Assembly: GCA_029288805.1 (NCBI GenBank)
Contig: JARIGO010000008.1
Coordinates: 3,894 to 67,893 of the forward strand
Direction of reading: 5' to 3'
Source: Candidatus Nomurabacteria bacterium
Lineage (GTDB): Bacteria > Patescibacteriota > Minisyncoccia > Phycocordibacterales > UBA9973
DNA: 64,000 nt
How positions within the stretch are numbered: the stretch's first letter is position 1; each line of letters opens with the position of its first letter. Made by a program: the position numbers and the translations under genes. This document shows positions 12,505 through 63,746 of this stretch, one piece after another. The notes under the pieces were generated by a model. It saw only the letters and a list, made by a program, of their open reading frames with translations, had not been told where the DNA came from and did not search any database.

Positions 12505-12516
12505 TTACCTAACCAT

Positions 12517-26463: not shown

Positions 26464-26487
26464 GAGCAAGAGTATACCACGAAGAAC

Positions 26488-35959: not shown

Positions 35960-36673
35960 ATGATTACCCTTTGGAATATAATTATTTACCAGCCTATCTA
36001 CAACGCACTTATCTTTATTGCTCAGCATGTTACTGGTAAAGATGTCGGCTTGGCCGTTATAGTCCTTACTATCGTTATTCGTCTCATTCTCTTCCCTCTC
36101 AGTAAGAAAAGTATTGTTGGCCAGTACAAAATGAAGGCATTGGAACCAAAACTCCAAGCGCTCAAAAACAAAGGACTTTCCAAAGAAGAAGAGGCTCAGG
36201 CCACCTTTGCGTTGTATAAGGAATATAAAATAAACCCTTTTTCAGGTTGCTTGTATATCATTATCCAACTCCCTATTCTTCTTGCCCTCTCTCTCTGTTT
36301 TACTCACGGCGTCAGCCAGCCAACTCATCTCTATCATTTCTTGAGCACAGACGGTCTTAAGAGTACTTTCCTTGGCGTTGTTAACATTACCAAACCATTC
36401 TTCTGGTTTGCATTGCTTGCTGGTATTACACAGGCTATTCAGGCCTTTCTTGCCCCACAGCCTATTCCTGCCGGAAGTTCAAATGACACAAACATGCAGA
36501 CACAATTGGCGAAAAGTCTTTCTGTTCAGACCAAGTACATCCTCCCTGTCATTATCGTTATTATCGCCTCTCGCTTGGCTTCAGCGGTTTCTATCTATTG
36601 GGCAATGGCAAACATCTTCTCTATTCTCCAGGAATTATATTTGCGCAAAACAGTACGAAGCAAATTGGCTTAG
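35960..36673 (+). CDS. yidC: YidC/Oxa1-family membrane protein insertase (short form)
   Basis: IIYQPIYNALIFIA...LAVIVLTIVIRLILFPL is the conserved YidC TM core. Sits in the rpmH-rnpA-yidD-yidC cluster. Confidence 0.85.
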   Translation: MITLWNIIIYQPIYNALIFIAQHVTGKDVGLAVIVLTIVIRLILFPLSKKSIVGQYKMKALEPKLQALKNKGLSKEEEAQATFALYKEYKINPFSGCLYIIIQLPILLALSLCFTHGVSQPTHLYHFLSTDGLKSTFLGVVNITKPFFWFALLAGITQAIQAFLAPQPIPAGSSNDTNMQTQLAKSLSVQTKYILPVIIVIIASRLASAVSIYWAMANIFSILQELYLRKTVRSKLA

Positions 36674-37908
36674 TACGCGTAGCTCCACAAGAATCCTGTA
36701 TTCTTATCAATGAAATACACAATGCGCTGACCTTCGTCGACTTGGATGTTCGTCATATCAAATGATGCGTCACTGCCATCATAGACTGTGGTGTAGGTAT
36801 TGTTTGAAGGGTCTATTTCATACAGCTGGTCAGAAAAATGCATAGTTCCCTGATACCAATCGTCAGGATATGTCCCGCTAGGCACGCTAGTGTTTCCTGC
36901 ACACATAAGGTCTTCATTTTGAAGCCAAGTGCATTTTTCAGGGAGAATATTTAAATTGATAGAGCTTGTAACATTGGTCTTTGTATTAAAAAGTTCCGTA
37001 TTAAAACCTGTTGCAGTACTTTGTGAATATAGTACGTAGGTGCCGCTTGGACTGACTGATGTAGTCATACCTGCTATGTCTCCCAAAACACGCTGCAGTC
37101 TCGCTGCTGACGTAATAGTGTATAAGAAGCCGTTTGCCACTGAAGCGGCTTTTGTTTGTAGGTATACGGCATTAGTAGTCCATTGTGGAAGCCATTCCAG
37201 GAATGGTGAATGAGTTAATGTTTTTACACTACCTCCTATACTGCTAGACGTACTAACAGAAGCGCCGGTCTTGTCATTTATAATGCGAACTATATGGCTT
37301 TGGTCAGGAGAAACAGCGAGAGCGGTTATATTGTCAGGAAGATATATGCCTGGTATCTGCGTACGAGTGCCGTCTGGGTTTAATGCAGGAACTGGAATGC
37401 TGTATGTAGCAATGGTCTTTTGATCATCACGCAAAAAACGCAAAATGGCAGTGCTATTGGCGTCTGCAAACATGGCTTCATAGACGTTTGGAATGAAGAC
37501 GTTGGTGATCTGTGTGGCAGAAGAGCCGTTTTTGATTTCATACACGTATCCATTGGTTCGAGAAACGTAGCGAATATAATGGTCAGTCGTGGTCTTCACA
37601 TCTACAGTCGGCTTCCCGGACACTGTGGACGGAACAGAAACTTGGTTAACGAGCGAAAAGAGCGTATAGCCCGCTATAGGATGGGCGGTGATTTCCCTTA
37701 ATGCAGAAGTCGTTGAATTGTTTGTTACCGTACCAGTAGAATTATCGATGTTCAGTATGTTTGAACTGCTTGTCGTAGCCTTGGGAAAGAAAGAGGTCAC
37801 TACCTTTGGAATAGGCGCATTGGTCTGCTCTCGTGGACGAACATAGAAATACCATACTCCTGCCCACACAAGAACGATGACGAGTAAGATAATGAAGATG
37901 CGACGCAT
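36670..37908 (-). CDS. hypothetical N-terminally membrane-anchored protein, possibly beta-propeller-like ectodomain
   Basis: N-terminal TM helix IFIILLVIVLVWAGVWYFYV. Ser/Thr-rich. No catalytic motif recognised. Confidence 0.45.
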   Translation of the reverse strand: MRRIFIILLVIVLVWAGVWYFYVRPREQTNAPIPKVVTSFFPKATTSSSNILNIDNSTGTVTNNSTTSALREITAHPIAGYTLFSLVNQVSVPSTVSGKPTVDVKTTTDHYIRYVSRTNGYVYEIKNGSSATQITNVFIPNVYEAMFADANSTAILRFLRDDQKTIATYSIPVPALNPDGTRTQIPGIYLPDNITALAVSPDQSHIVRIINDKTGASVSTSSSIGGSVKTLTHSPFLEWLPQWTTNAVYLQTKAASVANGFLYTITSAARLQRVLGDIAGMTTSVSPSGTYVLYSQSTATGFNTELFNTKTNVTSSINLNILPEKCTWLQNEDLMCAGNTSVPSGTYPDDWYQGTMHFSDQLYEIDPSNNTYTTVYDGSDASFDMTNIQVDEGQRIVYFIDKNTGFLWSYAY

Positions 37909-37933
37909 AAGGTTATTGTACTATGTATAGTTT

Positions 37934-39631
37934 TTATCTACCATCAATTGACCAGTGCCACGCTTCCTTTGCAAAGTTTTTAAAACCATATGTTGCCGCA
38001 TTATTTTGTAACCATATAAAACAGGGACTACTGTGTGAGCTGATAGCATCCTTGTCTTCATTGCAAACAAAATCAAACGCCAATCCACTTTCGTGATTTG
38101 AATGACCAACCGGTGCTGTTGGAGGGTTACAACTTGCATTTGGGGTATATAAATCACCATTACAATGTTTCTTTCTAAGAGCTGTTTGTTCAGCTGCCGT
38201 TCTGAATCCTCCACCGGTTAATTTTATACCAGCTCCATACGCTGCTTTCAGCATATTTTGTAAATTGGTAGCGACCGGTATTCCTTTATAGTTTGAACAT
38301 GCTACAAAACTTGATTTTTGTACCGTTACTCTGGTTATTCCTGCTGTACAAGCACCTGCCGCACCACTTGTCGGAGCGCCTGTGTTTTGTATTAAAGGTG
38401 TGGTATCAGTATCAGGTGCTGTTACCCCAATCGCCAGCTGTTGCACATTCACGGTTTCATTTACGAGCTTTGGATTTATAGTATTTAAAATAATGTAAGA
38501 AGTCAGGACTAACAATAAGCCCATCAATGAAGTAAAAAATTGACCCTTTGCGTTCGCCTTCTTGAATGGAAGGTCTGTGGTCATGTACTCGAAGCCTACA
38601 TACATTAGTCGAAGCACTAGAATTACACCGGTTATACCTATAAGAATTTGAATAGCTAAGTTTAGATAGTCATTAAAGCTACATTTTGGAGGTGTTTTTC
38701 CAGCTGCCTGCGCCTGTTGTTGCTCTTGAGCACAGACGTCAGGGTCTGGGAAGATAGTGCTTTTGCTTGGATCTGAAAGGAATGTATATACGTTTGGGTT
38801 TAAATTTTGCCCCGCACCAGAGCCGGAATTAGCAGAAGATGGGACAAAAGCTGTTGCTCCTGTTGAACCGTCAAAGCTTTGAATTTTTCCTTTAATGGAA
38901 TTATTAGCATTCAGCACCAATGTCTGTTGCATGTAATATGTCGTATTTGGCTGTATACCTGGTAAAACCCACCAATAAGTACCAGCAGGATCATCTTGAG
39001 AAACGTCTTCACCATTTGGGCCTTTTCCGTCACTAATACCGTTAGGGCTTCCAACAGTGGCGTATGCAAGGCTTGGTATACCCGACTGTATAGGATTTGA
39101 AAGGTCAGGAGACTTAGAATATGTTAAATATGCATGATAATCTTGATAGTTCTTCTGCTTAATCGGGTCTATAAAACCTTTAATATTTGCGTACGAGTCT
39201 TCTATGTCTACGCTGAGGTCATTGTAATAAACAGTAAAAGGAGTAGTTTTTACTGTTTGCGAAGGAGTTACGTATGAAGCAGATGATATTAGGTTCTGAG
39301 GAATTTCCGCGACTCGAATATAATAAGTCGTATTAGGGTTATATCCGCTCAACGACCAATGCAACGTGGCTGGCTTTCCAGAACTTGCGGCACTTGATTG
39401 TTGAATGGTAGGGTCTGTCGTTCCAGGGATTGATGTTGTTGACCCTGTATACGTACCACTAGTGAACTGAGTAGGTTGTACCACCAATTGGTATTTGTCA
39501 GCGTTAGTAACTCCACTCAAGGAAGCCGTAATAGTGGTTATTCCTGTTGAGGCGGTAAGTGTTAGGGCGGCAAATGTACGACTTACAAGCAGCAAGCTAA
39601 ATAGGATACTGAAAAACAGTATTTTTTTCAT
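37934..39631 (-). CDS. secreted multidomain protein: FN3-like N-terminal modules, two central hydrophobic helices, C-terminal M15 (VanY/D-Ala-D-Ala carboxypeptidase-like) zinc peptidase domain
   Basis: Signal peptide. C-terminal HSNHESGLAFDF (SxHxxGxAxD) and EAWHW motifs. Hydrophobic LAIQILIGITGVILVLRLMYVGF and LMGLLLVLTSYIIL. Confidence 0.6.
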   Translation of the reverse strand: MKKILFFSILFSLLLVSRTFAALTLTASTGITTITASLSGVTNADKYQLVVQPTQFTSGTYTGSTTSIPGTTDPTIQQSSAASSGKPATLHWSLSGYNPNTTYYIRVAEIPQNLISSASYVTPSQTVKTTPFTVYYNDLSVDIEDSYANIKGFIDPIKQKNYQDYHAYLTYSKSPDLSNPIQSGIPSLAYATVGSPNGISDGKGPNGEDVSQDDPAGTYWWVLPGIQPNTTYYMQQTLVLNANNSIKGKIQSFDGSTGATAFVPSSANSGSGAGQNLNPNVYTFLSDPSKSTIFPDPDVCAQEQQQAQAAGKTPPKCSFNDYLNLAIQILIGITGVILVLRLMYVGFEYMTTDLPFKKANAKGQFFTSLMGLLLVLTSYIILNTINPKLVNETVNVQQLAIGVTAPDTDTTPLIQNTGAPTSGAAGACTAGITRVTVQKSSFVACSNYKGIPVATNLQNMLKAAYGAGIKLTGGGFRTAAEQTALRKKHCNGDLYTPNASCNPPTAPVGHSNHESGLAFDFVCNEDKDAISSHSSPCFIWLQNNAATYGFKNFAKEAWHWSIDGR

Positions 39632-39650
39632 GAATATAGTTTATCACGAA

Positions 39651-40610
39651 TTAGTTAAAGTTCACTGAGAATTTGCGGGAAAGATTTTGCAAGCTATACA
39701 CAAGAGTGTTTATGGCCACGGTAAATTGTGACTGGCCTCCCCCATCGGGGCGTGACAAAAGTAATTCATTAATTATGTTTCCTGAAGGTATGTTGTTTCC
39801 GTCGTTATCGGTATATGAAAATCCTAAGTCATGCGCTGCACTAATAGGCGTTGAAAAGAAATACGGCTCAAAATGAATGATTGCCCCGGTGTCTGTAGTT
39901 GAAAGTGTATCTGCGGATCCGTTGGCATAATCTATATAGCCATTATGGTTAAAATATCCAATAACAGTAGGGTTTCCCGTGTTTATGTTAATGTCGTTTG
40001 TTCCTGAAAAAGCGCCGTTTTGTTCCGTAACCTCAATGTCATTAGTAGGATTGAGGTCGTCATCTTGAAATAGGAGGCTTGATTTGTCGTATCCGGACTG
40101 TGACTGCACTACGCTGCCATTTTGTGACCATGTATAGCTAAGGTGTGTCGGAGCGCTAATAGTAGGAACAGCGGTAACACGAATCATGCTGCCTGAAGAA
40201 GGCAATGCTCTGCCTTTATAAAATGGAGGTGTATAGCTTTTCACCCCTTCCCACAACAGGTCCACGCTTGCAGGGCGCAATACCAGCGTTGCGCTGGTGG
40301 CGTCAAAGTCTCCGCCTGAAGCTCTTAGTACGATAGTGCCCGTTACTCCGCTAGCAGGTGCTGTAACAGTAATCTGCGTCACGCCTGTTCCCGATTGAAC
40401 AGTTTTGCCGTTATATGTCCAGGTTAGGTTCGCCTGATTGATATCAGTAGCGAAACTTTGAGCGCTGATAGTGACTTGTTGCAACGGTAAAGGATTAGAT
40501 GGTGATGCAGTAAGCGAAAGATCGATGGTGGCTGATTGTGCATGAACGACAAAAAACACTCCGAGTAGTGCGAGAAGTATTGCGCTGGTTATAAAAGCTA
40601 ATCGTTTCAT
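39651..40610 (-). CDS. secreted hypothetical protein (T4SS-locus associated)
   Basis: Signal peptide MKRLAFITSAILLALLGVFFVVHAQSA. No motif. Abuts the virB4-like gene. Confidence 0.5.
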   Translation of the reverse strand: MKRLAFITSAILLALLGVFFVVHAQSATIDLSLTASPSNPLPLQQVTISAQSFATDINQANLTWTYNGKTVQSGTGVTQITVTAPASGVTGTIVLRASGGDFDATSATLVLRPASVDLLWEGVKSYTPPFYKGRALPSSGSMIRVTAVPTISAPTHLSYTWSQNGSVVQSQSGYDKSSLLFQDDDLNPTNDIEVTEQNGAFSGTNDININTGNPTVIGYFNHNGYIDYANGSADTLSTTDTGAIIHFEPYFFSTPISAAHDLGFSYTDNDGNNIPSGNIINELLLSRPDGGGQSQFTVAINTLVYSLQNLSRKFSVNFN

Positions 40611-40611
40611 A

Positions 40612-42417
40612 TTATGCGCGTTGTTGTTGACTAAATTCCTGCTTCGCCTTTTGAATAGAGATAACCTGAGATGGGTCGGAGGTAATAATCTGGTCTTCAG
40701 TATATGAAGCGATAATTTTGATGGCCACGTGTTTCAAGCCAGCAAAGAAGATGCCTTCCCCTACTCCGGATTCAAGCAAAAGATATTTTTCCTCATCAGT
40801 GAGGTTGAATGTTTTTTGCAATACGTCCATTGTTGATGGAGACTGCTTCAACAGCAACTGAATGGAAGAGTTTGTAATAATAGGCACTCCGTATGGGCTC
40901 TTCATGAAGTCACCAACGTCTTGAGTGATGGTACAGAGACCGAGGTAATACTTACGTCCTCGCTTGGCAATGGAATACAGGAACGACGCCGTATCTTCTG
41001 ACTTCATCATCCACCATGCCTCGTCCACTACCAAAAGACGTTTTTTAAGCTCTTTACGCACAGCATTCCAAATAAAGTGTGTAACGATATACATCGCTGC
41101 CGGTTTCAAGTCGTCTTCCATGTCTCGTACAGAGAACACCACGAATTTCTTATTAATATCAACGTTGGTTGGCTGGTTGATGAAGCTTGCCCATGATCCA
41201 TGCGTGTATTTCGTAAGACGTTGCAAGATAGAATCAGTTCCCTCCATACCGGAAAGTACCATTTCAAAGTCTGAAAGCAATGGTGGTTCAATGGTGCTGA
41301 AATCAGAGTCGGCCGTAATGTCTTTCAATGAATATGTTTCTGTAATAGCGCGGTCAATCAGTGAGTCTTCTTCTGGCGACAAACCTCCAAGCATGATGCG
41401 AAACAGTCCCACCAAGTTGATGATGTTACTTCGAAGCACGTCTGCAGATGACTCGTCTTCTCGTGGAATAGGAAGATCAAATGGGTTGATGTGGTGGTCT
41501 GAAGAAAGTGAAATATTAAAATATCGTCCCCCTACCGCTTCGGCCAGGTATTCGTATTCTCGCTCTGGGTCAATAACCAATACGTCGGTATCAAACATCA
41601 GTGTACGAATGATTTCCAGTTTCGTAGCATAACTTTTTCCGGCACCAGACTTTGCGAAGATAATAGAGTTGTAGTTTTCAAGACTGAAGCGATCAAAGAT
41701 AACTAAACTTGAGTTGTGGCGATTAACGCCGTATAGGATGCCCGTTTCACTAGTAAGATCAAATGACACGAATGGAAACATGCTAGAAATTGGCTCAGAG
41801 TTTAACTTCTGGGTGACTTGTAGTTTGTCTGTACCAAGCGGAGCAACTGTCTTAAATCCATCCTCTTCCTGGAAAAGACTTGGCTTGATATAGATCAGTT
41901 TTGACTCAAGCATGGACTTGATCTCACTTTCCGCGCGAAAGAGGTCGGTATCGTTGTCGGCGTAGATAGTGATATACATGCCCACATCAAACATTTTTTC
42001 CTGAGCCTGGGTAAGGTTGTCTCGAAGTTCCTCTAGGTCTTCACGAGCAGTATCAAGCATCGGGTCACGTACCAAACCTTTTTGTTGGCGCACAATGATC
42101 TGGCTTTCCACTTCGGCAATTTTCTTTTGGAAATGTTTCAGCAGTTCCGCTGTTTCAATCGGGTTGATGTAAATGGCAATGTCAAAAATCTTATCAAGAT
42201 TGATGATTGGAGTGAGCCAGTTGTCGGTAAGGTAGCGAGGATATGAAATGACAAAAAACGTTCGGACTATTTTGTCGCCGATACGCATTGATTTTGGGGT
42301 GATCTCGATGGCGGAAGGGGCAATCTTGTCTGAGAGATCCATGCTCTCCCATTCTTCTACTTGTGAAGATGAAATCGGTAAGAGACTTTCTTTGTCTGCC
42401 ATGCCTATAGTATACAC
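40612..42417 (-). CDS. VirB4/TrbE/CagE-family type IV secretion ATPase, C-terminal ~600-aa portion (domain CagE_TrbE_VirB + ATPase)
   Basis: IVRTFFVISYPRYLTDNWLTPIIN, Walker A FAKSGAGKSYATK, Walker B LLVVDEAWWMM. The first in-frame start after the TAA is GTG at 42415-42417, and the first in-frame ATG is at 42400-42402. Confidence 0.75.
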   Translation of the reverse strand: MYTIGMADKESLLPISSSQVEEWESMDLSDKIAPSAIEITPKSMRIGDKIVRTFFVISYPRYLTDNWLTPIINLDKIFDIAIYINPIETAELLKHFQKKIAEVESQIIVRQQKGLVRDPMLDTAREDLEELRDNLTQAQEKMFDVGMYITIYADNDTDLFRAESEIKSMLESKLIYIKPSLFQEEDGFKTVAPLGTDKLQVTQKLNSEPISSMFPFVSFDLTSETGILYGVNRHNSSLVIFDRFSLENYNSIIFAKSGAGKSYATKLEIIRTLMFDTDVLVIDPEREYEYLAEAVGGRYFNISLSSDHHINPFDLPIPREDESSADVLRSNIINLVGLFRIMLGGLSPEEDSLIDRAITETYSLKDITADSDFSTIEPPLLSDFEMVLSGMEGTDSILQRLTKYTHGSWASFINQPTNVDINKKFVVFSVRDMEDDLKPAAMYIVTHFIWNAVRKELKKRLLVVDEAWWMMKSEDTASFLYSIAKRGRKYYLGLCTITQDVGDFMKSPYGVPIITNSSIQLLLKQSPSTMDVLQKTFNLTDEEKYLLLESGVGEGIFFAGLKHVAIKIIASYTEDQIITSDPSQVISIQKAKQEFSQQQRA

Positions 42418-42429
42418 TAGTGTTGCTAT

Positions 42430-43062
42430 TTATTGACTTGATTGCGTACTTGTTTCTCCCGGGTTGAACGTTTTATACAACACCTCGATGACTTCTTGCG
42501 TGCCAAGTTGTACCAATCGCAAGCCTACGCCTGACAGGCCCTGCTCTACCACACTGACGCGCTGCTCAAGCTGCGTGCGCTCCTCTTCGAAGTTGCTAAC
42601 TGTTTCGTTTCCTACCGGAGTCTTTTTAAGGAATGAGAAAAATTTCCCAACGCCGCTGTTTTGGGCAAGTACTGGCGGAATGTATGGGATAACTACAAAG
42701 AATGACTTGCGCATAATGTTCACCTGTTCGGTAAATGTCTGAATAAACTGGATGTATTCACGGGTCTGTACCTGCAATAGCTGCTCGGTTTGTTCCTTGA
42801 GACGGTTTTCTAGCGTTAAAATATAAGGGCGAATGTCGTATCGACGAGATTGAATAACGATTTCAATGGGAAAATCAATGGTATTAAGAAAGTTTTGAAA
42901 TTGAGCCAGGGTTGCACGCTGCTCATCATATGACTTCAAGCTGAGGTTGATGGAAGACACCAATACAACGGTACACAAAGTGCCGTCTTTTAGTACAACG
43001 ATGCCATCGCGCACTTCTTGTACTGGAACGAATTGTTGGGCTGGGGTGCCAATTGTAGCCAT
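42430..43062 (-). CDS. VirB4-like N-terminal ~210-aa fragment (same frame as downstream ATPase, separated by one TAA)
   Basis: VQEVRDGIVVLKDGTLCTVVLVSSINLSLKSYDEQRATLAQFQNFLNTIDFPIEIV parallels the VirB4/TrbE N-terminus (compare the Agrobacterium VirB4 HIVLLEDGS...AFELEE...FN.LL region). Both ORFs' lower coordinates are congruent mod 3. Confidence 0.6.
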   Translation of the reverse strand: MATIGTPAQQFVPVQEVRDGIVVLKDGTLCTVVLVSSINLSLKSYDEQRATLAQFQNFLNTIDFPIEIVIQSRRYDIRPYILTLENRLKEQTEQLLQVQTREYIQFIQTFTEQVNIMRKSFFVVIPYIPPVLAQNSGVGKFFSFLKKTPVGNETVSNFEEERTQLEQRVSVVEQGLSGVGLRLVQLGTQEVIEVLYKTFNPGETSTQSSQ

Positions 43063-43063
43063 G

Positions 43064-43507
43064 TTATTTTTTGGAGCCGATGACGTCCAAACTCCACGAA
43101 AGAGTGTTAAGATTGCTTCCGTTCATTGTAGCACGGTTATTTGTTGCAGCGGGTGATGTCTTTGTGTCGCTGGTAAGAATAGGACTGACAATTCTTTTTT
43201 CAACAGGCTGTTTTTTTGAAACGACAGGTGCCTGCTTGTGCCACAGATACAGTCGAGAGCGAGAGTAGTATCGAATGAATGATTCAACGACGTTAACAAA
43301 CGGCTTGTCATTGTACTTCATGAATGCCAATGCCAATGCGAAACCAACGATTGCTGGTCCTACAAATATGGAGATATACACAGGGAGCATTTTGAATGCC
43401 AAATATCCAAAGCCCGCTCCCCCAGCCAAGTATGCAAACTGCTTAAAAGTAAGCGGTCCAAATACCTTGTCTTCAATATCGATAAATTGTGGCACTTTGA
43501 ATTGCAT
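43064..43507 (-). CDS. VirB3/PrgI-like small membrane protein
   Basis: Two TM helices (FAYLAGGAGFGYLAFKMLPVYISIFVGPAIVGFALALAF) immediately upstream of the VirB4 gene, the canonical VirB3 position. Confidence 0.55.
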   Translation of the reverse strand: MQFKVPQFIDIEDKVFGPLTFKQFAYLAGGAGFGYLAFKMLPVYISIFVGPAIVGFALALAFMKYNDKPFVNVVESFIRYYSRSRLYLWHKQAPVVSKKQPVEKRIVSPILTSDTKTSPAATNNRATMNGSNLNTLSWSLDVIGSKK

Positions 43508-43512
43508 AACTA

Positions 43513-44013
43513 CTACACATTGTCTATCTGTTCGTGATATGGGTCAATAGCAGGCTTACTCACCGGAGCTTCATTTGCAGAAGGAAGACTATAGTCTCGT
43601 TTCACAGGAGCTGCTATGGATGCCTGCTTGAGGCGGTCGGCAAGAGAGCTTAGTGGCGTTGGTGTAGTCGCAACAGGGTTTTCTGTAGACTCCTTGTCAA
43701 TTTCCTCACTTGCTTCAATAATAGCTAGGATTTCATCGATAACCTTTTCCTTTATTAGCTTGCGAATAATCTCTTTTTTTGAATCCTCAATCGTTAATCC
43801 TCGAATAGTATAGTCTAGCTGCTGTTCTAAGATGCCTCCAAACAAGAAGAATAATATGGCATTTGAAAACTGTAGTCTTTCGTCTTCTTTATCAATAATT
43901 TTCAGTATCTCATTTTTTATACCATCGAATGTGTCGCTAAAAATAAAATCCTTAACTTCTTGAGGAACATCAGCAGCATCTTCTTCTATTGTGTTGAGTA
44001 TTTCTTCATTCAT
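43513..44013 (-). CDS. acidic hypothetical protein in T4SS-like cluster
   Basis: No TM and no recognised motif. Coupled to the neighbouring genes. Confidence 0.45.
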   Translation of the reverse strand: MNEEILNTIEEDAADVPQEVKDFIFSDTFDGIKNEILKIIDKEDERLQFSNAILFFLFGGILEQQLDYTIRGLTIEDSKKEIIRKLIKEKVIDEILAIIEASEEIDKESTENPVATTPTPLSSLADRLKQASIAAPVKRDYSLPSANEAPVSKPAIDPYHEQIDNV

Positions 44014-44018
44014 AATAC

Positions 44019-47000
44019 TTATTTTGATTCTTCGCCCTTAGCTTTTTTCTTTTGATCTTCTCTATACTTTGAAATATCCCCCCAGATTTTTTGATGCTTT
44101 TCAGCCTCTTCAATTTCTCGGAATGTAGCCCAATATTTTTTGGTGGCGACAAGGTCGCCTGATGCCATACCTGTTCTTTGACGTTTTAGTTCTTTTTTGA
44201 GTTCACCCATATTATAACGGCTTTGCTCAACCACTTGTACTTGATGTTCTATTTTCTCTCGGCTTGCCTTATCTGCCTGCAATGCTATTCGTTCTGCATC
44301 TACAGCTGCTTGCTCATCCGGCTCCAATAGGTCATAAAGTTTCTTGCCTTTGTATGCACCTGTTTGGACTTTACCTGTATTAAAGAGCTCCTCCCTTTCT
44401 AGAGGGGTGAGGACGTTAAGCCCGTTACTATTAGCAAATTTCTGCGTAGCAATAAGGTTGGTAAAACCATTTTTGAGAGTTTCTTCTATCTTCTCAAGTT
44501 CTTTTTGTGCCTTGCTTCGCTCTTCTATTTTTTTAGATGCTCTTTTACTTCCTTCTGCTCTGACTTCGCTACCAATTGCAGCACCCACCGTAGCTCTCAA
44601 TAGGCCCGCTACTGCGGCACCTTCTTGCCCTTGCTGACCAAGCCAGTTTAATCCTTGTGTGATAGGGCCGCCGGTCTTAAGGTTGTCGGCATATTTCTTT
44701 CTGCGGCTACTCGTTAACTCTTCTGCTGTAGCAACGGTCTTAGGAGCCTCAATATTATTGATGGTAGTTTGGGTGTTGGTATTTGTTAATGCTTGGGTTC
44801 TGTACTCATTATAAATTGTAGGATCAGGGTTTTCCTTGTTGTCTCGCGCAGTCTTTGCCGCATCAATTTGTGCCTGAGTGCGGCCATCTGCAAGCATTTG
44901 AGCTTCAAGTACCTTCTCAATTTTCTTATCGTACTTTTTCTTAACTTTTTCATTGTATGCCTTAATGTTTTCTCCATTTTTCTCTTCAAGAAGTTTTTCG
45001 TCTGCTACCTGGCGCTCTTCTCGGCGTTTTATATCTGCCTCTCTTCCCCCCTTACGCTGATCTACTCCGAGTCCCAACCCAATCCCCGCAAGAGCATTAA
45101 GAGACTTTTGATTAGTGTTTATTCCCAACTGTTTAAATAGGGCACTTCCTGCTGTTGTCTGCCTAACATCGAATGATCCTGATCGAGTAGCGTTTATCCC
45201 CTTTTGTAATGTTCTGCCGATACCACCAAAATATTTATTTGCTGCTAAGTTTCTTATACCTACGCCAACATTAGACTCATCGACTCGTTTTGCCAAGCCC
45301 CCGACCACTCGACCCCCGACCAATGCTGCACCGCCAGTTGCTGCCCCAACGGCAAAACCGGTTATAGTATTTCCAAACGATTGAATGGATTTTCCAATAT
45401 CACCCGAAAGTCTTTCAGCGGTTTTTCTTGCTGCGTCAATGAGGAAATAAATGATAGCCATAGGAATAGCTATAGCCATAATTGTTCCAAAGATACTTCC
45501 GTTTGAAGTATTTGCTACACCAATGTCTTGAACAAAACTACTCGTAAGAACTACGTAGATTATATAAAGGAAAAATATAAAAACCGGAGCGAGCATGGCA
45601 TAGTTGGCAAGTTCGCTTGACCAGTCTGTCCATCGCAATCGCTCAACCTTGCTAAGCATTGGTATGTTTTGACTAAGGAAGGCAAATGGGGAAAATATCA
45701 TACATATGTAAAGACCGACTACTCTTCCCACAAAGAGAAATGCAACCTTAAAGAACATTATAGCTATTGCTAGCATGATAAAGGTGGCAACTATGCATAT
45801 GATTCCAAAATAAATAGCTTCGTCATTTGCGGAAAGAGGTTTCTGTGTAGGGGCTGATGTTGGGGAGCTGGTGAGAGCGCCTGTTAGGGTGCCATAGTTC
45901 GGTGTTTGAAGAACGTTGGTGGTAAATATTTTTTGCGGATTAAAGGATGAAATTATCTTTTCTGAAAGAGGCCAGTATCCTCCAAGACTCCGCTTAACTT
46001 GAGCAGGAGGGCAAGTATTCGTTGTGGGGTCGATACTTGCCTGATCGCAGACAACCATCTGGCTATAGAACACTCGGGCTGTAACATTCGAGATATCAAT
46101 GACAATGCGTGTTGCGAAGAGACTAAAATTGATAAGTAATGCGTTAATAATAATATTCGGCACCACCTGCTTCATTGAGGATTTGCTGGTGTTGAATACA
46201 GCTGAAAATCCGGTATATACCAAAATAATAATGAAGAATATATTTGAAATATCTCGAACCAGCTTCCATCCTGTTACTGCGAATGCGTAACGATATGAAG
46301 CATCACTCACCGAGTATCCGATAAAAAAGTCAAAAAGCTGCCCAAGCAATCCTGCTATCCACGCAGCAAGGTTGTAAATACCATATGCTGCTTGTGCTAA
46401 GCAACCGTTAAAAGTCCCACTAATAGGATGGCTTATAGCACACTCCGGTAACCCGTCGTCATCCGTAGACGAAGAGGTTTGAGTTTGGGCAAGTGTCTGC
46501 TGGGATGTTGCGGCTTGCTGTTGGAGTGTAGTAGCATCAGTCGGTATAGTAATGGGAAGAGGTGATCCAATTTGGAAAAAACTCGCTCCCCCGCATACGC
46601 TGCCAAAGGTTGCTGGATTTGTCGTTGCAATCTTATTGCTTTGGTACGTAGATACAGCATCTGAACCGTCACCTGTAGCGCAATACCACAAACTGGCGGT
46701 TAAAGAGTCTCCTTGTTTAAAAGAGATGTTACTAACACTGCTGGCTGTATTCGCGCTAGGATTATATGTATATACATTTGAACCATCTGCCGCAAAGGCG
46801 CTAACAGGAACTGTTAGGTTGTCGACATAGTTACCCTCAGTACTTTTGGCGTAGATAAAAAGTTTATCATTTCCTGGATTTGGATCTTTAAGGTCAAAAA
46901 GAACAGTGTTAAGCCAGCAGTTATTTGTATTACTATTTTCACATACCTGAATAACAAAATTTTGAGTGCTATTCTTCTCTACCTTGTCCCAGTGCGCCTC

Positions 47001-47303
47001 ATCAGTATCACCATTTCCTGATAAGGCAATTTTTAAGTTAATGGTAAAAGCAAGTCCTTGGACGGTATTTGTGGCTGTTGATTTTTGAATGGTCCCGCCT
47101 GAAATACCACTGCCTGAGGAAAAGTTATTTATATAAGTAGCATACTGAGCATCGAGATTTGCTTTTGTGAGAGGGTTTGCCGCAAAAATCCTTATTGGGC
47201 TGAGTAAGAAAGCAGTACCAATCAATGCAAGCGCTGTTAAAGCTATCGTTTTATTCAAACGAGAAAAAATAGTTTTTATGCGACGAAAGAGACGTGCGGA
47301 CAC
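44019..47303 (-). CDS. very large polytopic membrane protein, VirB6/TrbL-like, with N-terminal ectodomain and long charged C-terminal tail
   Basis: Signal peptide plus about 300-aa ectodomain. At least 6 TM helices (e.g. YFGIICIVATFIMLAIAIMFFKVAFLFVG). Gly-rich GFAVGAATGGAALVGG. C-terminal Lys/Glu-rich coiled-coil-like tail. Confidence 0.55.
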   Translation of the reverse strand: MSARLFRRIKTIFSRLNKTIALTALALIGTAFLLSPIRIFAANPLTKANLDAQYATYINNFSSGSGISGGTIQKSTATNTVQGLAFTINLKIALSGNGDTDEAHWDKVEKNSTQNFVIQVCENSNTNNCWLNTVLFDLKDPNPGNDKLFIYAKSTEGNYVDNLTVPVSAFAADGSNVYTYNPSANTASSVSNISFKQGDSLTASLWYCATGDGSDAVSTYQSNKIATTNPATFGSVCGGASFFQIGSPLPITIPTDATTLQQQAATSQQTLAQTQTSSSTDDDGLPECAISHPISGTFNGCLAQAAYGIYNLAAWIAGLLGQLFDFFIGYSVSDASYRYAFAVTGWKLVRDISNIFFIIILVYTGFSAVFNTSKSSMKQVVPNIIINALLINFSLFATRIVIDISNVTARVFYSQMVVCDQASIDPTTNTCPPAQVKRSLGGYWPLSEKIISSFNPQKIFTTNVLQTPNYGTLTGALTSSPTSAPTQKPLSANDEAIYFGIICIVATFIMLAIAIMFFKVAFLFVGRVVGLYICMIFSPFAFLSQNIPMLSKVERLRWTDWSSELANYAMLAPVFIFFLYIIYVVLTSSFVQDIGVANTSNGSIFGTIMAIAIPMAIIYFLIDAARKTAERLSGDIGKSIQSFGNTITGFAVGAATGGAALVGGRVVGGLAKRVDESNVGVGIRNLAANKYFGGIGRTLQKGINATRSGSFDVRQTTAGSALFKQLGINTNQKSLNALAGIGLGLGVDQRKGGREADIKRREERQVADEKLLEEKNGENIKAYNEKVKKKYDKKIEKVLEAQMLADGRTQAQIDAAKTARDNKENPDPTIYNEYRTQALTNTNTQTTINNIEAPKTVATAEELTSSRRKKYADNLKTGGPITQGLNWLGQQGQEGAAVAGLLRATVGAAIGSEVRAEGSKRASKKIEERSKAQKELEKIEETLKNGFTNLIATQKFANSNGLNVLTPLEREELFNTGKVQTGAYKGKKLYDLLEPDEQAAVDAERIALQADKASREKIEHQVQVVEQSRYNMGELKKELKRQRTGMASGDLVATKKYWATFREIEEAEKHQKIWGDISKYREDQKKKAKGEESK

Positions 47304-47333
47304 CAGTACAGTGTATCATGCTACGCTTGTTTT

Positions 47334-48431
47334 TTACCACAAATTAATGCGCAAAATCTTTTCAACAACAGGGATAAGAAGACCGTAATCAGACGTGCCA
47401 CCCGTAATAGTATGCGTTGGGTCAAAAGGGTTTCCTACAGTAGCCTTTGCTTTCACAATTGAACCATCAATCATTACGCCTTGAGGAGCACTCCAGTTCA
47501 AAACGCCGTATGGACCTGACGGTATAGCAGAGTCGCGTTCAGAGTCGTCGCCAGGAGTCTTTAGTCCTGTGTCGTGAATGCTTGTAAGATGGTTTTCCAT
47601 AGATGGTGAATCACCGAAATAGAGGAATGTCAGGCTGTCTTGTGCAGGGTCAACGGTGCTACTTGTACCCCATAATGTGGCAATGCTGCTTGGCACACTT
47701 GTTCCCCATGACATCCAAAACGGCGTACTAAGATGTTCATTAAGCTGCGGGATGCCCGTGGCTGCAACCATTGGAAGCTTTACTTCACAATAGTTATAGA
47801 GTTCGGTTGCCTGATCTGCCTTTACAGCAAAAGCGTCATGGTTTGCTATTTCAGTCTGTACGTCAGCGTCCGTATGAAGTGTCTGGGCTATAGTATAAAA
47901 GCGATTTTGCAATTCATTGAGTTCAGCAATTTCATCAGGAGTGAATTGAATCGTAGTGTCTTCGTCGCTGCATACTGGAGTAGGTGACCCTGATGATACA
48001 CTCGGATTGCCTCCTGTGTCGGAAGATGAAGGGTTTCCGCTTGATCCGATGTCTGATCCTGGATTCCCTCCTACTATAGACCCTCCTAAGCCATTACCAA
48101 GGCTGATGCCGCCCGGAGTAATGCTGCCGTTAGTGAAATTACTTACTTGAATATTGTTGTCGAGTGCGGCATTAGGATTACCCCCTATTCCACCTACTCC
48201 GGCATTTCCGTTGTTGTTCGTACCAGTACCCGTCCCTGTAAATGCTGACGTGTTTTCTCCAGGAACTGTCTGTGCGGGGTTGGCCTTGGTCCCAAGACCA
48301 AGAAATTGTTTGAACGAAAGCGGCGTCTGTCCAGATTTCTGAGCCTTGCTGCGTCCAATAAACCAAATAATCAAGAGGGTTAGTGCGAATGCCGCGAGCA
48401 GTATAAGGATGATTTTAAATACTTTCTTCAT
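47334..48431 (-). CDS. membrane-anchored hypothetical protein with Gly/Ser/Asn-rich linker and C-terminal globular domain
   Basis: N-terminal TM helix IILILLAAFALTLLIIWFI, then a low-complexity GTGTGTNNNGNAGVGGIGGN linker, then a domain with no recognisable match. Confidence 0.5.
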   Translation of the reverse strand: MKKVFKIILILLAAFALTLLIIWFIGRSKAQKSGQTPLSFKQFLGLGTKANPAQTVPGENTSAFTGTGTGTNNNGNAGVGGIGGNPNAALDNNIQVSNFTNGSITPGGISLGNGLGGSIVGGNPGSDIGSSGNPSSSDTGGNPSVSSGSPTPVCSDEDTTIQFTPDEIAELNELQNRFYTIAQTLHTDADVQTEIANHDAFAVKADQATELYNYCEVKLPMVAATGIPQLNEHLSTPFWMSWGTSVPSSIATLWGTSSTVDPAQDSLTFLYFGDSPSMENHLTSIHDTGLKTPGDDSERDSAIPSGPYGVLNWSAPQGVMIDGSIVKAKATVGNPFDPTHTITGGTSDYGLLIPVVEKILRINLW

Positions 48432-48432
48432 A

Positions 48433-50793
48433 TTACTGTATGTCGTTATTATAGAAGTTCTGAGCCGCGTCTGCTGAATGCTGCACCATCAAGTCTTCCT
48501 CGTTGTGCAATGCGTTGCTATCGTCAGGCTCCTGTTGGGCCTGACCAACGATTTTGCCGGCATTAATTTGATATGCCTGGTTGATGCAAGCCATATTTAC
48601 AGGATCTCCCGCTGCAGCGCGCTGCTTAATGTATCGGGCCTTGGCATTGGCAACAATTGAGTCAACTTGCTCACGAATATTCTCAAGCTGCTCAACGTCA
48701 TTTTGAGTATCAGAAATATTCTGGTCATATGTTTGGTCAATGCTCGCTACGGCCTGGTTGTATCCTGTCAAACTGTCAGTATTTACGTAGGCATCTTGTA
48801 AGAACCCATCCACATACGAAGTGTCTGCGTCCCCTGCTGCGGCCTGCTGAAAACCACTACCAATAAGGCTTCCTTGATAAGTAGTACCGCTAATGCCGGC
48901 AAAGAAAGCGCTGTATTGTCCTACTACAGCCTGATATGCAAGACCGAGCGCACCTTGAATATCTGGTACTGCCACGCCGTCGTCATGGCTTTTTGGGGTA
49001 TAAAATGTTCTCTGTAGTTGTATGCTTTGGCCAGTGATTTTGTCTGAAAAGACTCCTGTGGCCCCCCATAATGATGGTGCTTTTCCGCTATCCGTGAAAA
49101 TTCCCACAATACCACTAAGGAGTGATCCTACAAATGGAATGTCGCCAAGCAATTTTTCAGCCGTTGAAACATCCTTTGGGGGTGCCTGTTGTATTGATCC
49201 GACAAAAGTTTGCCAGTTGCTATCTAGGTTAGTTTGCCAATCAGGATTTGGTCCAGGAATACAATAGTCCAATGCTCCAATGGCTGGAATAATACGTTGC
49301 TCCGCAATCTGTGCATCCTTGGATGCATTAAGGAAGTTGTATTGGGTTTGAATAATGGCATACAGCTGTTGTGGTCTTGATATGTCAAAGTCTCCAGTAT
49401 TGATTCCGCCTGTTGAATCAGATGCGTATCCTAATGCTGAGGCATCACTAGAGCTAAGGTTACCAGAAACAGAGTTATCGCCACTACTGCCAAGACCAGC
49501 AATAGGGGTACTTCCGCTGCTACTGCCTCGCAAGCCTTTTGAAAGAAGGTTGTTTACAAGACTGTCAAAAAAACTACCGAGCACCTCGTTTATTTGATTT
49601 GCTTGTTCAAGCTGTCGGTTAGGAGAAGTAGTAATAGTGTTAACTTGGCTTGCGATGACTGATCCTGGTGTAACAGTCGAGCAGTTTTGAAGACCGTTGA
49701 TGGTATTGTTGTTATTTAGTCCTGCAGAAATTGCGGTCGTGGTGTTTGACGTAGCTGCAGGGGTTGTCGTTTGGGTGCATTTCTTTAGATCAAGAAATCC
49801 GCTGTTTCGCTGAATTTCATTAGATGCGTTTTGCTGAGACTGTGTAATATTGTTACCAAGCTTGTCGCTTGCGTTAAAGAAAGCACCCACAGGGTTATAT
49901 GCGGGATTGAGCAACGCATCCCAACCGCCGTTCGTAAAATCACTTATAAATGAATTGTATGCTTGTGATTGAGGGGTATTGAGTGGAGTATTGAGCAGTC
50001 CGTCTGACCGTCCGGTAATTTGGTATGTCATTGCAGAACGTAATGCGTTACCAAAAATAGGATCAGTCCCCTGCACAGTATTAAGATAACTAGCGATCTG
50101 CTGATTCTTGATACTGTTAAGGTAGCTTCCCACATTTTGAACATAGAGCGGGTTACCGTTAAATCCCGTATTAACCCAGTTCAGTGTTTTGTTGGTAATT
50201 TGAGCCAAGGTGTTTTTTGCCACAGCGTACGCAATACCGTTGAGACACTGAGAGGTCTTATTCATGGCCGTTAACTGAGCCGTTGCCTTTGAATCAGAGG
50301 TCTGTACTGCCCCGCCGCCTAAGCCTAAATAGCTAGAGAGTGATTTACCGACAATCTTAACACTAGTCTTTGCCAAAAGATTTGATGCAGTATTCGCTAA
50401 AAAGCTACCAATGTTTGTACAGCTGGCAATAGCACCCCCGATACCACTAATTGAAATACCTCCATACGTATTTCCGGAGCTAAGATTGACGCTCGGGTTG
50501 AATGTCTGCAGGGTGCTTTTTGCAGCCTGAGCATCTTCGCATTGATTTAGGTTGTTACCAGTAAGTCCTTTGCAAGGACCAGAGTTTGGAGAACCGATAG
50601 TTTGAGAAGGAATGGTTACCGCTACGCAGTTGCCAGCACTATTCATTGTTTGGCCTACCCCGCAGATTTTAGGAAGTGTGTACGTAGGAGTCGGTGTAGT
50701 AATTGTTTGCTGCGCCCAAATAGTAACCGGTAGTGAAAAAAACACTATGTTAAAAATCAAGACGATAGAAATAGCTTTTTTCCAGTAGGACAT
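48433..50793 (-). CDS. large secreted Gln/Asn/Thr/Gly-rich hypothetical protein (786 aa); candidate surface/adhesin or pilus-associated component
   Basis: Signal peptide MSYWKKAISIVLIFNIVFFSLPVTIWAQQ. No catalytic motif. Compositionally biased. Confidence 0.5.
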   Translation of the reverse strand: MSYWKKAISIVLIFNIVFFSLPVTIWAQQTITTPTPTYTLPKICGVGQTMNSAGNCVAVTIPSQTIGSPNSGPCKGLTGNNLNQCEDAQAAKSTLQTFNPSVNLSSGNTYGGISISGIGGAIASCTNIGSFLANTASNLLAKTSVKIVGKSLSSYLGLGGGAVQTSDSKATAQLTAMNKTSQCLNGIAYAVAKNTLAQITNKTLNWVNTGFNGNPLYVQNVGSYLNSIKNQQIASYLNTVQGTDPIFGNALRSAMTYQITGRSDGLLNTPLNTPQSQAYNSFISDFTNGGWDALLNPAYNPVGAFFNASDKLGNNITQSQQNASNEIQRNSGFLDLKKCTQTTTPAATSNTTTAISAGLNNNNTINGLQNCSTVTPGSVIASQVNTITTSPNRQLEQANQINEVLGSFFDSLVNNLLSKGLRGSSSGSTPIAGLGSSGDNSVSGNLSSSDASALGYASDSTGGINTGDFDISRPQQLYAIIQTQYNFLNASKDAQIAEQRIIPAIGALDYCIPGPNPDWQTNLDSNWQTFVGSIQQAPPKDVSTAEKLLGDIPFVGSLLSGIVGIFTDSGKAPSLWGATGVFSDKITGQSIQLQRTFYTPKSHDDGVAVPDIQGALGLAYQAVVGQYSAFFAGISGTTYQGSLIGSGFQQAAAGDADTSYVDGFLQDAYVNTDSLTGYNQAVASIDQTYDQNISDTQNDVEQLENIREQVDSIVANAKARYIKQRAAAGDPVNMACINQAYQINAGKIVGQAQQEPDDSNALHNEEDLMVQHSADAAQNFYNNDIQ

Positions 50794-50794
50794 G

Positions 50795-51688
50795 TTATGA
50801 CGATAGTATACCGTATTTTACAAGATAATCATGTAGATTATAAAAAGCCTGGCTACCTCTTGAGTTGTATGTCTTGTAGAGTGCCACACCAACAAGCGCC
50901 TCTGTTCCATTGTCGGACATTTGCTGAAGGTATGGGAAGGATGCCGCCATGCCAGCAAAGCCATTGATAATGTCCAAGTCATACTGTGCTACCCCTATCG
51001 GAACATTGATTTTACTGATTTGCTGGGCCATAGCAGTATAGTCAGCGCCCGTTTGGGTAAGTTCCGGAAGTTGGCTGTAGTCTCCTGTTTCCGCAGCATT
51101 AATAATGACGGTAATATCCGCATCGTCTTGATTGTACTTGCCAATAATATCACTAAGATTGTTGTAGTATTTTGTCAGTGAGGTCGAACTGGTTGTAACA
51201 GTGTGAATATCCTTGAGTGAATAAGTATTACTTACTGAGGATACGTTTATAGATGAACCAAGCTGGTTGGCCACGTTTTGCAGTGTTGTGTCGTCGACGT
51301 TGCCATTTTGACTTAGTGCGCTAGTGATGCTGAAAAGTTGTTGGGCCAATGCATCGGTTTCATTGGTCGGCGTCCCGGTTGTGTCATCCGTTACCCCAAG
51401 AGCCAATTTCTTTTCTTTGATAATCTCAGCGTTTGATTTTCCGTTTGTGTAAAGAACTGTTGGATCAAGTCCCCACAGTGTTTCTTCCCAGTCAGGAATA
51501 CCGTTGCCGTTTGAGTCTTTTGAAGTGATATCCCCCACTGTAAGGCTTTTTTGAGTAGTAGCTGTTTTTTTCTTATGAAAAAGATTGCCAAACCATTTAG
51601 TCTGTACTCCTAAGATGATAAGGATAAGTAGTACCACTAACCCTCCGCGAATGAGAAATTGTTTACTAGGACGAAATGATTCAGCCAT
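50795..51688 (-). CDS. membrane-anchored hypothetical protein (VirB8-position candidate) with a Ca-binding-like DxNxNG motif
   Basis: N-terminal TM helix LVVLLILIILGV. DSNGNGIPDWEE motif. Role is inference only. Confidence 0.45.
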   Translation of the reverse strand: MAESFRPSKQFLIRGGLVVLLILIILGVQTKWFGNLFHKKKTATTQKSLTVGDITSKDSNGNGIPDWEETLWGLDPTVLYTNGKSNAEIIKEKKLALGVTDDTTGTPTNETDALAQQLFSITSALSQNGNVDDTTLQNVANQLGSSINVSSVSNTYSLKDIHTVTTSSTSLTKYYNNLSDIIGKYNQDDADITVIINAAETGDYSQLPELTQTGADYTAMAQQISKINVPIGVAQYDLDIINGFAGMAASFPYLQQMSDNGTEALVGVALYKTYNSRGSQAFYNLHDYLVKYGILSS

Positions 51689-51696
51689 AGATGTTT

Positions 51697-52086
51697 TTAT
51701 GACGTACCGTACTTATATGTATCTGTTACAGGGAACGGAGACTCATAGAGATAGCAGGTATAGCTGTCTACCACAGGAGATCCTACGCCCAATATCCAGC
51801 TACCCATTTTGGGAACAGTAACAAAATTTGCCAGTGAGCCATATTTCGGCATCGCATAATATGGAAATGGCGTTTGCACGCTGCCGGGAGCAGTCAGCAT
51901 TGTTAACGGTCCTGTACCAAGGCCGGCACAAGTTACAAGCGGATAAAAGTTGCTTGGGTAAGCTGTTTGAAGCACTTTTCCTCCAAAGCTCCGGTCTGTT
52001 CTTAGGAAAGTCGCTGCATGAGCAGCAAGCGGTATGATCACCAATACAAAGATAATAGCGATACTAATAATAGCGTGTTTCTTCAT
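51697..52086 (-). CDS. small secreted hypothetical protein (first gene of the T4SS-like cluster)
   Basis: Start set at MKKHAIISIAIIFVLVIIPLAAHAA (signal peptide). Two Cys. Stop abuts ksgA. Confidence 0.45.
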   Translation of the reverse strand: MKKHAIISIAIIFVLVIIPLAAHAATFLRTDRSFGGKVLQTAYPSNFYPLVTCAGLGTGPLTMLTAPGSVQTPFPYYAMPKYGSLANFVTVPKMGSWILGVGSPVVDSYTCYLYESPFPVTDTYKYGTS

Positions 52087-52877
52087 TGTTGGTATTGTAG
52101 CACCTGTACCAACTTTTTCCATGTCAAAAGAGTCATGTCTTCTGGCCGGGTTTTTGGATCAATGTCCGATTTTGTTAATGCATCAACAGCTTTTTCTTTG
52201 TCGTTCAGAAATTCTGTAAGACTTCCTCCTATTTGCTTACGTTTTTTACCAAAGACTGATTTCATAACGGCGAAAAAGAGTGCTTCGTTGCAGTCAGCAA
52301 AAAAATCTCGAGAAATTCCTTCAATAGAAAGAATGGCTGAGTCTACTTTTGGAGGCGGATTGAATGCTCCTGCCGGAACTTTGGCAACGATCCTTGGTTT
52401 TCCATATGCTTTTACGGCAATAGAGAGAATACTTTCCTTGTTGTCTCGAGCTACGATACGTTCCGCCACTTCTTTTTGAATCAGCAAAACCATTTGTTCA
52501 GGCTGGCATGAAGTGCTCAGGAACTTTTCTATGATAGCGCCAGTTATATAGTATGGAATATTGGCGATTAGTTTATAGGTTTTATGTTGTAGAAAATTAC
52601 TAGGGTTAAATTCCAGTACGTCTTCTTCCGTCAATGTTAGCTTCCCTGAAGCAATCTCATCTGCAAATTTCTCCTGGAGTACGGGAATAAGTTCGCGATC
52701 TTTTTCTACGGCTATTACTTTTCCTGCACATGTCAAAAGCTCTTCCGTAAGGATGCCTGTCCCGGGTCCGATTTCCAAGACAAGGTCATTGCTCCCCACA
52801 TTTCCCGCTTCGCGAATTTTTACCAAAGCACTTTTTGACGTGAGGAAATGCTGTCCGAGGTGTTTCTTTGCTTTCAT
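52083..52877 (-). CDS. rsmA: 16S rRNA (adenine1518/1519-N6)-dimethyltransferase
   Basis: KKHLGQHFL N-terminus, SAM-binding LEIGPGTGILT, NIPYYITG. Ends in a TGA stop. Confidence 0.85.
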   Translation of the reverse strand: MKAKKHLGQHFLTSKSALVKIREAGNVGSNDLVLEIGPGTGILTEELLTCAGKVIAVEKDRELIPVLQEKFADEIASGKLTLTEEDVLEFNPSNFLQHKTYKLIANIPYYITGAIIEKFLSTSCQPEQMVLLIQKEVAERIVARDNKESILSIAVKAYGKPRIVAKVPAGAFNPPPKVDSAILSIEGISRDFFADCNEALFFAVMKSVFGKKRKQIGGSLTEFLNDKEKAVDALTKSDIDPKTRPEDMTLLTWKKLVQVLQYQQ

Positions 52878-63731: not shown

Positions 63732-63746
63732 TAGAACTAAATATTG

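Follow-up and report, generated by a model that had tools for sequence, protein, structure and literature searches.

A VirB4-containing gene block beside dnaA in a Candidatus Nomurabacteria genome as a very probable example of the Patescibacteria type IV secretion system

The 64-kb window analyzed here, a single stretch of contig JARIGO010000008.1 from a Candidatus Nomurabacteria bacterium, carries on its minus strand a block of 12 co-oriented open reading frames (ORFs; 36670-52086) that includes a VirB4 ATPase. We consider it very probable that this block is the known chromosomal type IV secretion system (T4SS) of the Patescibacteria, which lies beside the replication origin, is derived from the conjugation machinery of monoderm MPF-FATA systems and is not itself a conjugation machine. 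The identities of its recognizable parts, its synteny, the constraint on VirB4 and the lack of DNA-processing genes nearby are direct observations, whereas we infer how the parts assemble, that the system is directed at a host cell, and in which direction it transports. By analogy, its role would most likely be to exchange material with the host cell to which this episymbiont attaches, in a contact-dependent manner. The system was already described between 2023 and 2025 and tested genetically in Saccharibacteria (PMC10633639), so the novelty implied by a preliminary description of this DNA is overstated; what is new is modest and lies in the accessory parts.

Results

The VirB4 protein (595 aa, 40612-42399, minus strand like the whole block; ATG at 42399 with an alternative GTG at 42417) has intact Walker A (GAGKS) and Walker B (VVDEAW) motifs. 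Its best NCBIfam family is the MPF-FATA family CD1110 (conju_CD1110, 1.1e-113, 381 bits against a cutoff of 325, profile positions 176-733 of 752), and it is also matched by Pfam P-loop_TraG (1e-25). Directly upstream lies a TrsD-like protein of 210 aa (42430-43062), a stand-alone VirB4 N-terminal domain, which matches positions 106-282 of VirB4_plasma, the NCBIfam profile for the VirB4 of Mycoplasma integrative and conjugative elements (ICEs; 2.9e-12), positions 2-116 of the CD1110 VirB4 profile (1.7e-5) and the TrsD/TraD family NF041427 (5.9e-7, 29.5 bits, under the family cutoff of 200). In NCBIfam the 210-aa ORF and the ATPase map colinearly onto one full-length VirB4, and a full-length clostridial VirB4 aligns over both (29% identity, 803 residues). 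The next gene upstream encodes a PrgI family protein, the VirB3 equivalent, as a two-transmembrane (TM) hairpin of 147 aa (43064-43507; Pfam PF12666, 1.7e-10, 41.7 bits against a cutoff of 27), and it directly precedes the TrsD-like gene in 76 loci.

The preliminary description had reported a VirB4-like gene in two pieces, and there are indeed two ORFs, with an in-frame TAA between them in this window. That stop, and the fact that most of the neighboring genes are unannotated, would fit a conjugative element that integrated long ago and is now decaying, its VirB4 already disrupted. However, the TrsD-like and VirB4 genes are separate ORFs in 79/79 relatives, lie in different frames in 56 of them, and a separate small gene directly upstream of VirB4 also occurs in Firmicutes (including their plasmids), Actinobacteria and haloarchaeal plasmids. 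We therefore rejected a pseudogene, and on sequence grounds the two pieces are a conserved TrsD-like and VirB4 gene pair, not the product of a disruption.

Upstream of the PrgI gene, a polytopic protein of 1094 aa (44019-47303) is, by hydropathy and position, a candidate "extended VirB6-like" component. At its N-terminus is a signal or TM segment followed by an exodomain of about 300 aa with an invariant Cys pair; at least five TM helices (about residues 348-625) and a charged C-terminal domain of about 470 aa follow. Relative to PrgI, its gene occupies the position of VirB6 in the Clostridium botulinum plasmid pCDC3875, and a transitive link leads from its core to the homolog P0045 (E 7e-12) and from there to Pfam TrbL/VirB6 (26.5 bits, cutoff 25.9). 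Topology and position both fit VirB6, and we make the assignment tentatively. The slot between the VirB6-like and PrgI genes is filled by a TM-less, predicted cytoplasmic protein of 166 aa (43513-44013) with 35 D+E against 18 K+R residues. A TM-less ORF in this slot is acidic in seven of eight inspected loci, and sequence similarity to the 166-aa protein fades beyond eight loci.

The window has just one pilin-hairpin gene. Its product is an envelope protein of 565 aa (37934-39631), which comprises a signal peptide, an FN3-like exodomain of about 300 aa, a two-TM hairpin (about residues 303-385) with a basic loop, and a VanY/M15 domain (453-559; Pfam VanY, 9e-12), the last in agreement with the M15 peptidase first reported. 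The hairpin matches T4SS_pilin PF18895 (5.6e-5) and, less strongly, the VirB2 family TrbC (5e-3), and PF18895 is also matched by 21 of 24 positional orthologs, at best with 2e-9. Across 71 loci the hairpin is the sole conserved part of the protein: the N-terminal exodomains vary, and the C-terminal domain is swapped among orthologs for NlpC/P60 (6), VanY (3), YkuD (2), SLT types (4), Amidase_5 or CHAP. The signal peptide and the basic-loop hairpin together imply that both flanking domains lie outside the membrane, which fits a wall-active enzyme in the role of VirB1. The VanY/M15 domain would be the dedicated cell-wall hydrolase of the system, by functional analogy and not by homology to VirB1. 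With this hairpin and the TrsD-like protein, two recognizable components join the VirB3, VirB4 and VirB6 equivalents to which the preliminary description had limited the list; of those three, VirB3/PrgI and VirB4 stand firmly and VirB6 tentatively.

In one relative (L006) the pilin-hairpin gene is tandemly duplicated (12750-14198 and 14221-15645), and the two products, of 483 and 475 aa with the same TM pattern, recall the VirB2 arrays of other Patescibacteria classes.

A VirB4 scan of a genome collection returned 591 confirmed relatives, of which the best 80 (L001-L080) were analyzed as loci. These are species-level metagenome-assembled genomes, mostly labeled Candidatus Nomurabacteria, Paceibacterota, Minisyncoccia or (mislabeled) Saccharibacteria, with a few labeled only "bacterium". 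That all 80 titles are of the Patescibacteria type or "bacterium", together with the CD1110 (MPF-FATA) family of the ATPase, points to membership of the Patescibacteria clade; the best VirB4 matches outside the Candidate Phyla Radiation (CPR) are only 27-35% identical. Synteny across related genomes, a check that the preliminary description left to follow-up, proved extensive, with one order in about 70 genomes: uvrD, ksgA, the 297-aa gene, the 786-aa gene, a variable anchored protein, the VirB6-like gene, a variable acidic soluble protein, PrgI, TrsD, VirB4, the 319-aa gene, the pilin/hydrolase gene, the 412-aa gene, yidC, rnpA, dnaA and dnaN, with yidC and rnpA on the opposite strand. VirB4 is 74-96% identical in the best 80 species genomes, and its median identity (78%) exceeds that of DnaA (56%), KsgA (53%) and DnaN (49%) in the same loci, a comparison biased in its favor by the choice of loci as best VirB4 matches. 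The extracellular proteins of the block are more divergent (median identity 28-36%). The block is vertically conserved, and its position beside dnaA is fixed across about 70 species. A decaying remnant is hardly credible against a VirB4 so well kept, with both Walker motifs and all 12 of the 12 ORFs intact.

Within the window, the 12 ORFs are separated by intergenic gaps of -4 to 30 nt and bounded by ksgA on one side and yidC/rnpA/dnaA on the other. The ten minus-strand items of the preliminary description are all present, with the coordinates, tight spacing or overlap and properties given there. The block is longer than was proposed, as the 412-aa gene (36670-37908) also belongs to it by its conserved syntenic position between the pilin/hydrolase gene and yidC in 69 loci. 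This last gene is convergent with yidC, beyond which lie rnpA (35381-35704) and the origin-side neighbors dnaA (33741-35105) and dnaN (32456-33553). At the other end ksgA (52083-52877) adjoins the first gene, its stop codon overlapping the ATG of the 129-aa gene in an ATGA at 52083-52086. On account of this overlap the T4SS block is probably translationally coupled to the rRNA methyltransferase gene, and it appears to be co-transcribed with ksgA. A promoter and terminator scan returned fewer sites than shuffled controls, and counts of DnaA boxes near dnaA were insufficient for placing oriC. The composition of the block is native, as first noted: it has a GC content of 0.433, housekeeping genes one of 0.435, and its relative synonymous codon usage correlates with theirs at r=0.88, the half-versus-half housekeeping baseline being 0.93.

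Pfam and NCBIfam scans of about 58 ORFs, drawn from all parts of the window, detected no type IV coupling protein (T4CP), VirB11 or relaxase, which bears out the earlier statement that these (VirD4 being the coupling protein in question) are missing. A tblastn search with the clostridial VirD4 (CD1115) likewise found nothing in the window or within 10 kb on either side in the 80 relatives. Otherwise the scans identified housekeeping and type IV pilus genes. A T2SSE-family ATPase (21837-23642) was considered as a stand-in for VirB11 and rejected, being the type IV pilus protein PilB (TIGR02538, 1e-139) with an MshEN domain. The claim that no integrase is seen held only at the block itself, as a tyrosine recombinase is encoded at 59989-60915. 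As first noted, no tRNA flanks the block; tRNA genes lie only near the window ends (346-9729 and 63746-63982). The recombinase is XerC/XerD-like (TIGR02225, 1.7e-68) and lies 8 kb past the block with housekeeping genes between, not at a cluster boundary; an ICE was rejected on its XerC/D-like nature and the lack of a tRNA beside the block.

These results bear on the wider proposal of a conjugative T4SS, as a chromosomal ICE or an Hfr-like system, which would draw on a coupling protein and a relaxase from another part of the genome. The VirB4 family CD1110 is named for conjugative elements, the gene order is colinear with that of pCDC3875, a VirD4 carrier, and VirD4 homologs occur in most Patescibacteria genomes, generally distant from virB4 (PMC12102498). 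Against this stand not only the missing relaxase, coupling protein and oriT-associated genes in the window, with the VirD4 search of the 80 relatives, but also the lack of an integrase or att/tRNA boundary, the native composition and the fixed position on the dnaA side. Moreover, relaxases are nearly absent from the Patescibacteria, being present in only 103 of 3035 genomes, and the distant T4CP of Southlakia epibionticum is non-essential, unlike its T4SS genes (PMC12102498). A conjugative system therefore seems improbable.

A host-independent envelope machine, whether for environmental DNA uptake in the manner of ComB or Ced or for the assembly of a surface fiber or the wall, is slightly less probable again. 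It would share with ComB and Ced a VirB4 as sole ATPase and the lack of a T4CP (PMC12102498), it would account for the many Sec-dependent surface proteins and the wall hydrolase of the block, and VirB4 does give weak NCBIfam matches to CedB (5e-9) and CedD (4e-4). Those matches, however, score 35 bits against a cutoff of 700 and 19 bits against a cutoff of 600, respectively, with CD1110 the best family, and no CedA or ComB partners were detected. The comEC-dependent competence of S. epibionticum can be separated from the essentiality of its T4SS (PMC12857230; PMC12102498), and in this window the type IV pilus, the usual competence pilus, is encoded separately.

The other proteins of the block are secreted or anchored. 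The first gene (51697-52086) encodes a small secreted protein of 129 aa with a Sec-type signal (..AHA/A) and two Cys residues but no Pfam or NCBIfam match; its sequence is detectable in only two close relatives, and a small, N-terminally hydrophobic ORF fills its slot in two other inspected loci (L006, L033). The membrane-anchored 297-aa protein (50795-51688) has an N-terminal TM helix, a conserved acidic loop (DxNxNGxxDWEE) and a C-terminal four-helix bundle in place of the VirB8-like fold for which the preliminary description had marked it as a candidate. The 786-aa protein (48433-50793) is secreted (signal peptide), mostly helical and Cys-containing, with a conserved core at about residues 110-540. 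The family to which it belongs is very large (2975 cluster representatives at E<=1e-3, 1531 at E<=1e-10) and has invariant Cys residues and the motifs NWxNTGFxGNPxYV, TPGSxIA and LDYCIPGPNPxW, with no Pfam domain among the matches listed and no structural match in the Protein Data Bank (PDB).

The membrane-anchored Gly/Ser-rich protein of 365 aa (47334-48431; one N-terminal TM helix, 11.8% Gly) occupies a variable slot: its sequence is conserved in only nine loci, while five of eight inspected loci have some anchored ORF next to the VirB6-like gene, on the side of the 786-aa homolog or its slot and before it is reached. The gene for a secreted, beta-rich protein of 319 aa (39651-40610) follows VirB4 directly in 77 loci; the protein has a signal peptide and weak Pfam matches to Ig_3/MBG and yielded no match in a PDB profile search. 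The membrane-anchored 412-aa protein, without a Pfam or NCBIfam match, is possibly a TolB-like beta-propeller, the TolB matches of its profile in the PDB being weak (E 0.04-0.3).

Several further genes of the window were recorded. Two extra envelope proteins are encoded near the block: one with LysM and M23 peptidase domains (55030-56283) lies on the opposite strand just past uvrD, and a DUF11-repeat surface protein of 677 aa (17204-19237) lies further away. The type IV pilus genes, PilM (3148-4368) and PilB (21837-23642), are apart from the T4SS block. A SET-domain protein of 148 aa lies at 26023-26469 (PF00856, 1.9e-23). SET domains are better known from eukaryotic lysine methyltransferases.

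Discussion

The identities and order of these genes enable us to propose a model for the machine. In this model the TrsD-like protein would supply the VirB4 N-terminal domain in trans, and VirB4 would dock on the membrane via PrgI/VirB3 and the extended VirB6-like protein, so forming a cytoplasmic-membrane translocon. The pilin-hairpin protein would place its VanY/M15 domain outside the membrane, where it could open or remodel the cell wall at the machine, in the role of VirB1. It is plausible that the lineage-specific proteins of 129, 297, 786, 365, 319 and 412 aa build a wall-spanning or surface part.

That DNA-processing genes are missing and VirB4 is under strong constraint suggests a non-conjugative, host-directed role, as does the precedent of the Saccharibacteria: epibiotic growth of S. 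epibionticum requires its T4SS genes (Wang et al. 2023, PMC10633639), which lack recognizable coupling or relaxase proteins (PMC10633639; PMC12857230). The preliminary description had likewise favored host interaction or translocation over conjugation, comparing the block with the T4SS of episymbiotic CPR bacteria, and both the component set and the dnaA/dnaN/rnpA/ksgA neighborhood agree with that published for them (PMC12102498). As to what is exchanged, uptake of host macromolecules (nucleic acids) is the function we would put first, though at less than an even chance; protein export is only a little less likely, and a function confined to a pilus or to adhesion is unlikely.

Several points weigh against this interpretation. 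The VirB6 assignment depends on a borderline, transitive Pfam link: the 1094-aa protein and its 24 orthologs lack a direct Pfam match, the family profile reaches R388 TrwI/VirB6 in the PDB only at a non-significant E of 0.52, and hhalign against a CD1112 VirB6 gives a non-significant probability of 1%. A VirB8-like subunit (NTF2-fold, of the PrgL/TraM/TcpC type) was not found in the block, where the 297-aa protein forms a four-helix bundle, and seven of the 12 block proteins are without an assignable fold or function. The negatives for the coupling protein and relaxase apply to the 64-kb window, so that either could be encoded elsewhere in the genome, and the VirD4 homologs of most Patescibacteria are indeed usually far from virB4 (PMC12102498). 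To these must be added the selection of loci that favors VirB4 over DnaA, and the fact that role and transport direction are read by analogy with a different class, the Saccharimonadia.

The interchangeable hydrolases on the pilin hairpin are a new detail, as this fusion goes unmentioned in the text of PMC12102498. We speculate that hairpin subunits are incorporated in, or displayed by, the T4SS conduit, with their interchangeable wall-cutting heads breaching the wall of the host and not only that of the producer, and that together with the 786-aa family they form a host-piercing extracellular part. This is a doubtful proposal as it stands; if true, such a part would be without counterpart in known T4SSs.

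The Patescibacteria T4SS, essential in the one member so far amenable to genetics, is among the few candidate machines by which ultra-small, auxotrophic episymbionts may exploit their hosts. The present window offers a clean example from the Paceibacteria, with probable translational coupling to ksgA beside the origin, a TrsD/VirB4 split common with Firmicutes and a swappable wall enzyme anchored on a pilin hairpin. Structural and genetic studies could well begin with the 297-, 786-, 319- and 412-aa families, a small set of extracellular partners that are conserved yet unannotated.

Comparison with known systems

The closest described systems are those of the Patescibacteria themselves, whose VirB4 proteins form a monophyletic clade nested in MPF-FATA, with TrsD (a remote homolog of the VirB4 N-terminus), PrgI/VirB3, VirB6 and VirB2-like pilins (PF18895/PF04956) encoded near virB4 (Quinonero-Coronel et al. 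2025, PMC12102498), and which a 2025 review treats as a new T4SS subgroup (PMC12857230). In Paceibacteria and Microgenomatia these genes are located beside dnaA, dnaN, rnpA, ksgA and rpmH (PMC12102498). The window has in common with this clade, including the SEML1_0006-0019 genes of S. epibionticum, TrsD beside VirB4, PrgI/VirB3, a VirB2-like pilin and, tentatively, a VirB6-like protein, as well as the chromosomal location in the dnaA/dnaN/rnpA/ksgA neighborhood with no relaxase or T4CP nearby. The differences lie in the pilin, as the Saccharimonadia have an array of short pilins whereas the window has a single hairpin gene, whose product also carries a peptidoglycan peptidase, and in the Paceibacteria accessory genes (297, 786, 319 and 412 aa), which are unnamed in the text of PMC12102498.

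Among mobile elements, the CTn2/CD1110 subclass of MPF-FATA, represented by C. botulinum pCDC3875, has a VirB4 of the same CD1110 family (about 32% identity) and a colinear order of VirB6, PrgI, VirB4 and cell-wall hydrolase. However, pCDC3875 carries VirD4 (CD1115) ahead of VirB6, is typed MOBP, and has a single VirB4 of 797 aa and an SLT transglycosylase as hydrolase. In the window there is neither T4CP nor relaxase, VirB4 is split, the M15 peptidase sits on a pilin-like anchor, and the genes are not part of a mobile element. In TrsC-TrsD-TrsE of pGO1 and TraC-TraD-TraE of pIP501, as here, a small gene resembling the VirB4 N-terminal domain lies just upstream of the ATPase; the ATPase of the window nevertheless scores best with the CD1110 and not the pGO1 subclass. 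The Helicobacter pylori ComB, archaeal Ced and Bordetella Ptl systems resemble the window in having a VirB4-type ATPase without a T4CP and show no specific sequence relationship to it. ComB and Ced are DNA importers and Ptl is a toxin exporter, all without a coupling protein, so that they offer functional analogies for import or for export in two steps. Two of them, ComB and Ptl, belong to the diderm MPF-T type, which has VirB7/9/10.

The closest relative found outside the CPR is a cluster on a megaplasmid of the Firmicute Pontibacillus sp. ALD_SL1 (NZ_CP062975.1, 351-361 kb; 6778-17796 of locus L082), in the order two pilin-like genes, a 779-aa gene, PrgI-like, TrsD-like, VirB4 (33% identity) and an M23 peptidoglycan endopeptidase. 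Other close non-CPR relatives are CD1110-type systems of Firmicutes and Actinobacteria with VirB4 identities of 32-35% and a colinear VirB6-PrgI-VirB4-hydrolase order. The Pontibacillus plasmid is typed as non-mobilizable, and neither VirD4 nor a relaxase was found within 12 kb on either side of the cluster. Profiles built from the Paceibacteria proteins recognize its TrsD-like protein (124 bits), its pilin-like proteins (48 and 38 bits) and its PrgI-like protein (19 bits), while the Paceibacteria accessory proteins were not detected there; in contrast to the fusion in the window, its pilin-like genes are short, separate, upstream and unfused to the hydrolase. This cluster suggests that pilin-like genes and a split VirB4 either predate the Patescibacteria or occur outside them.

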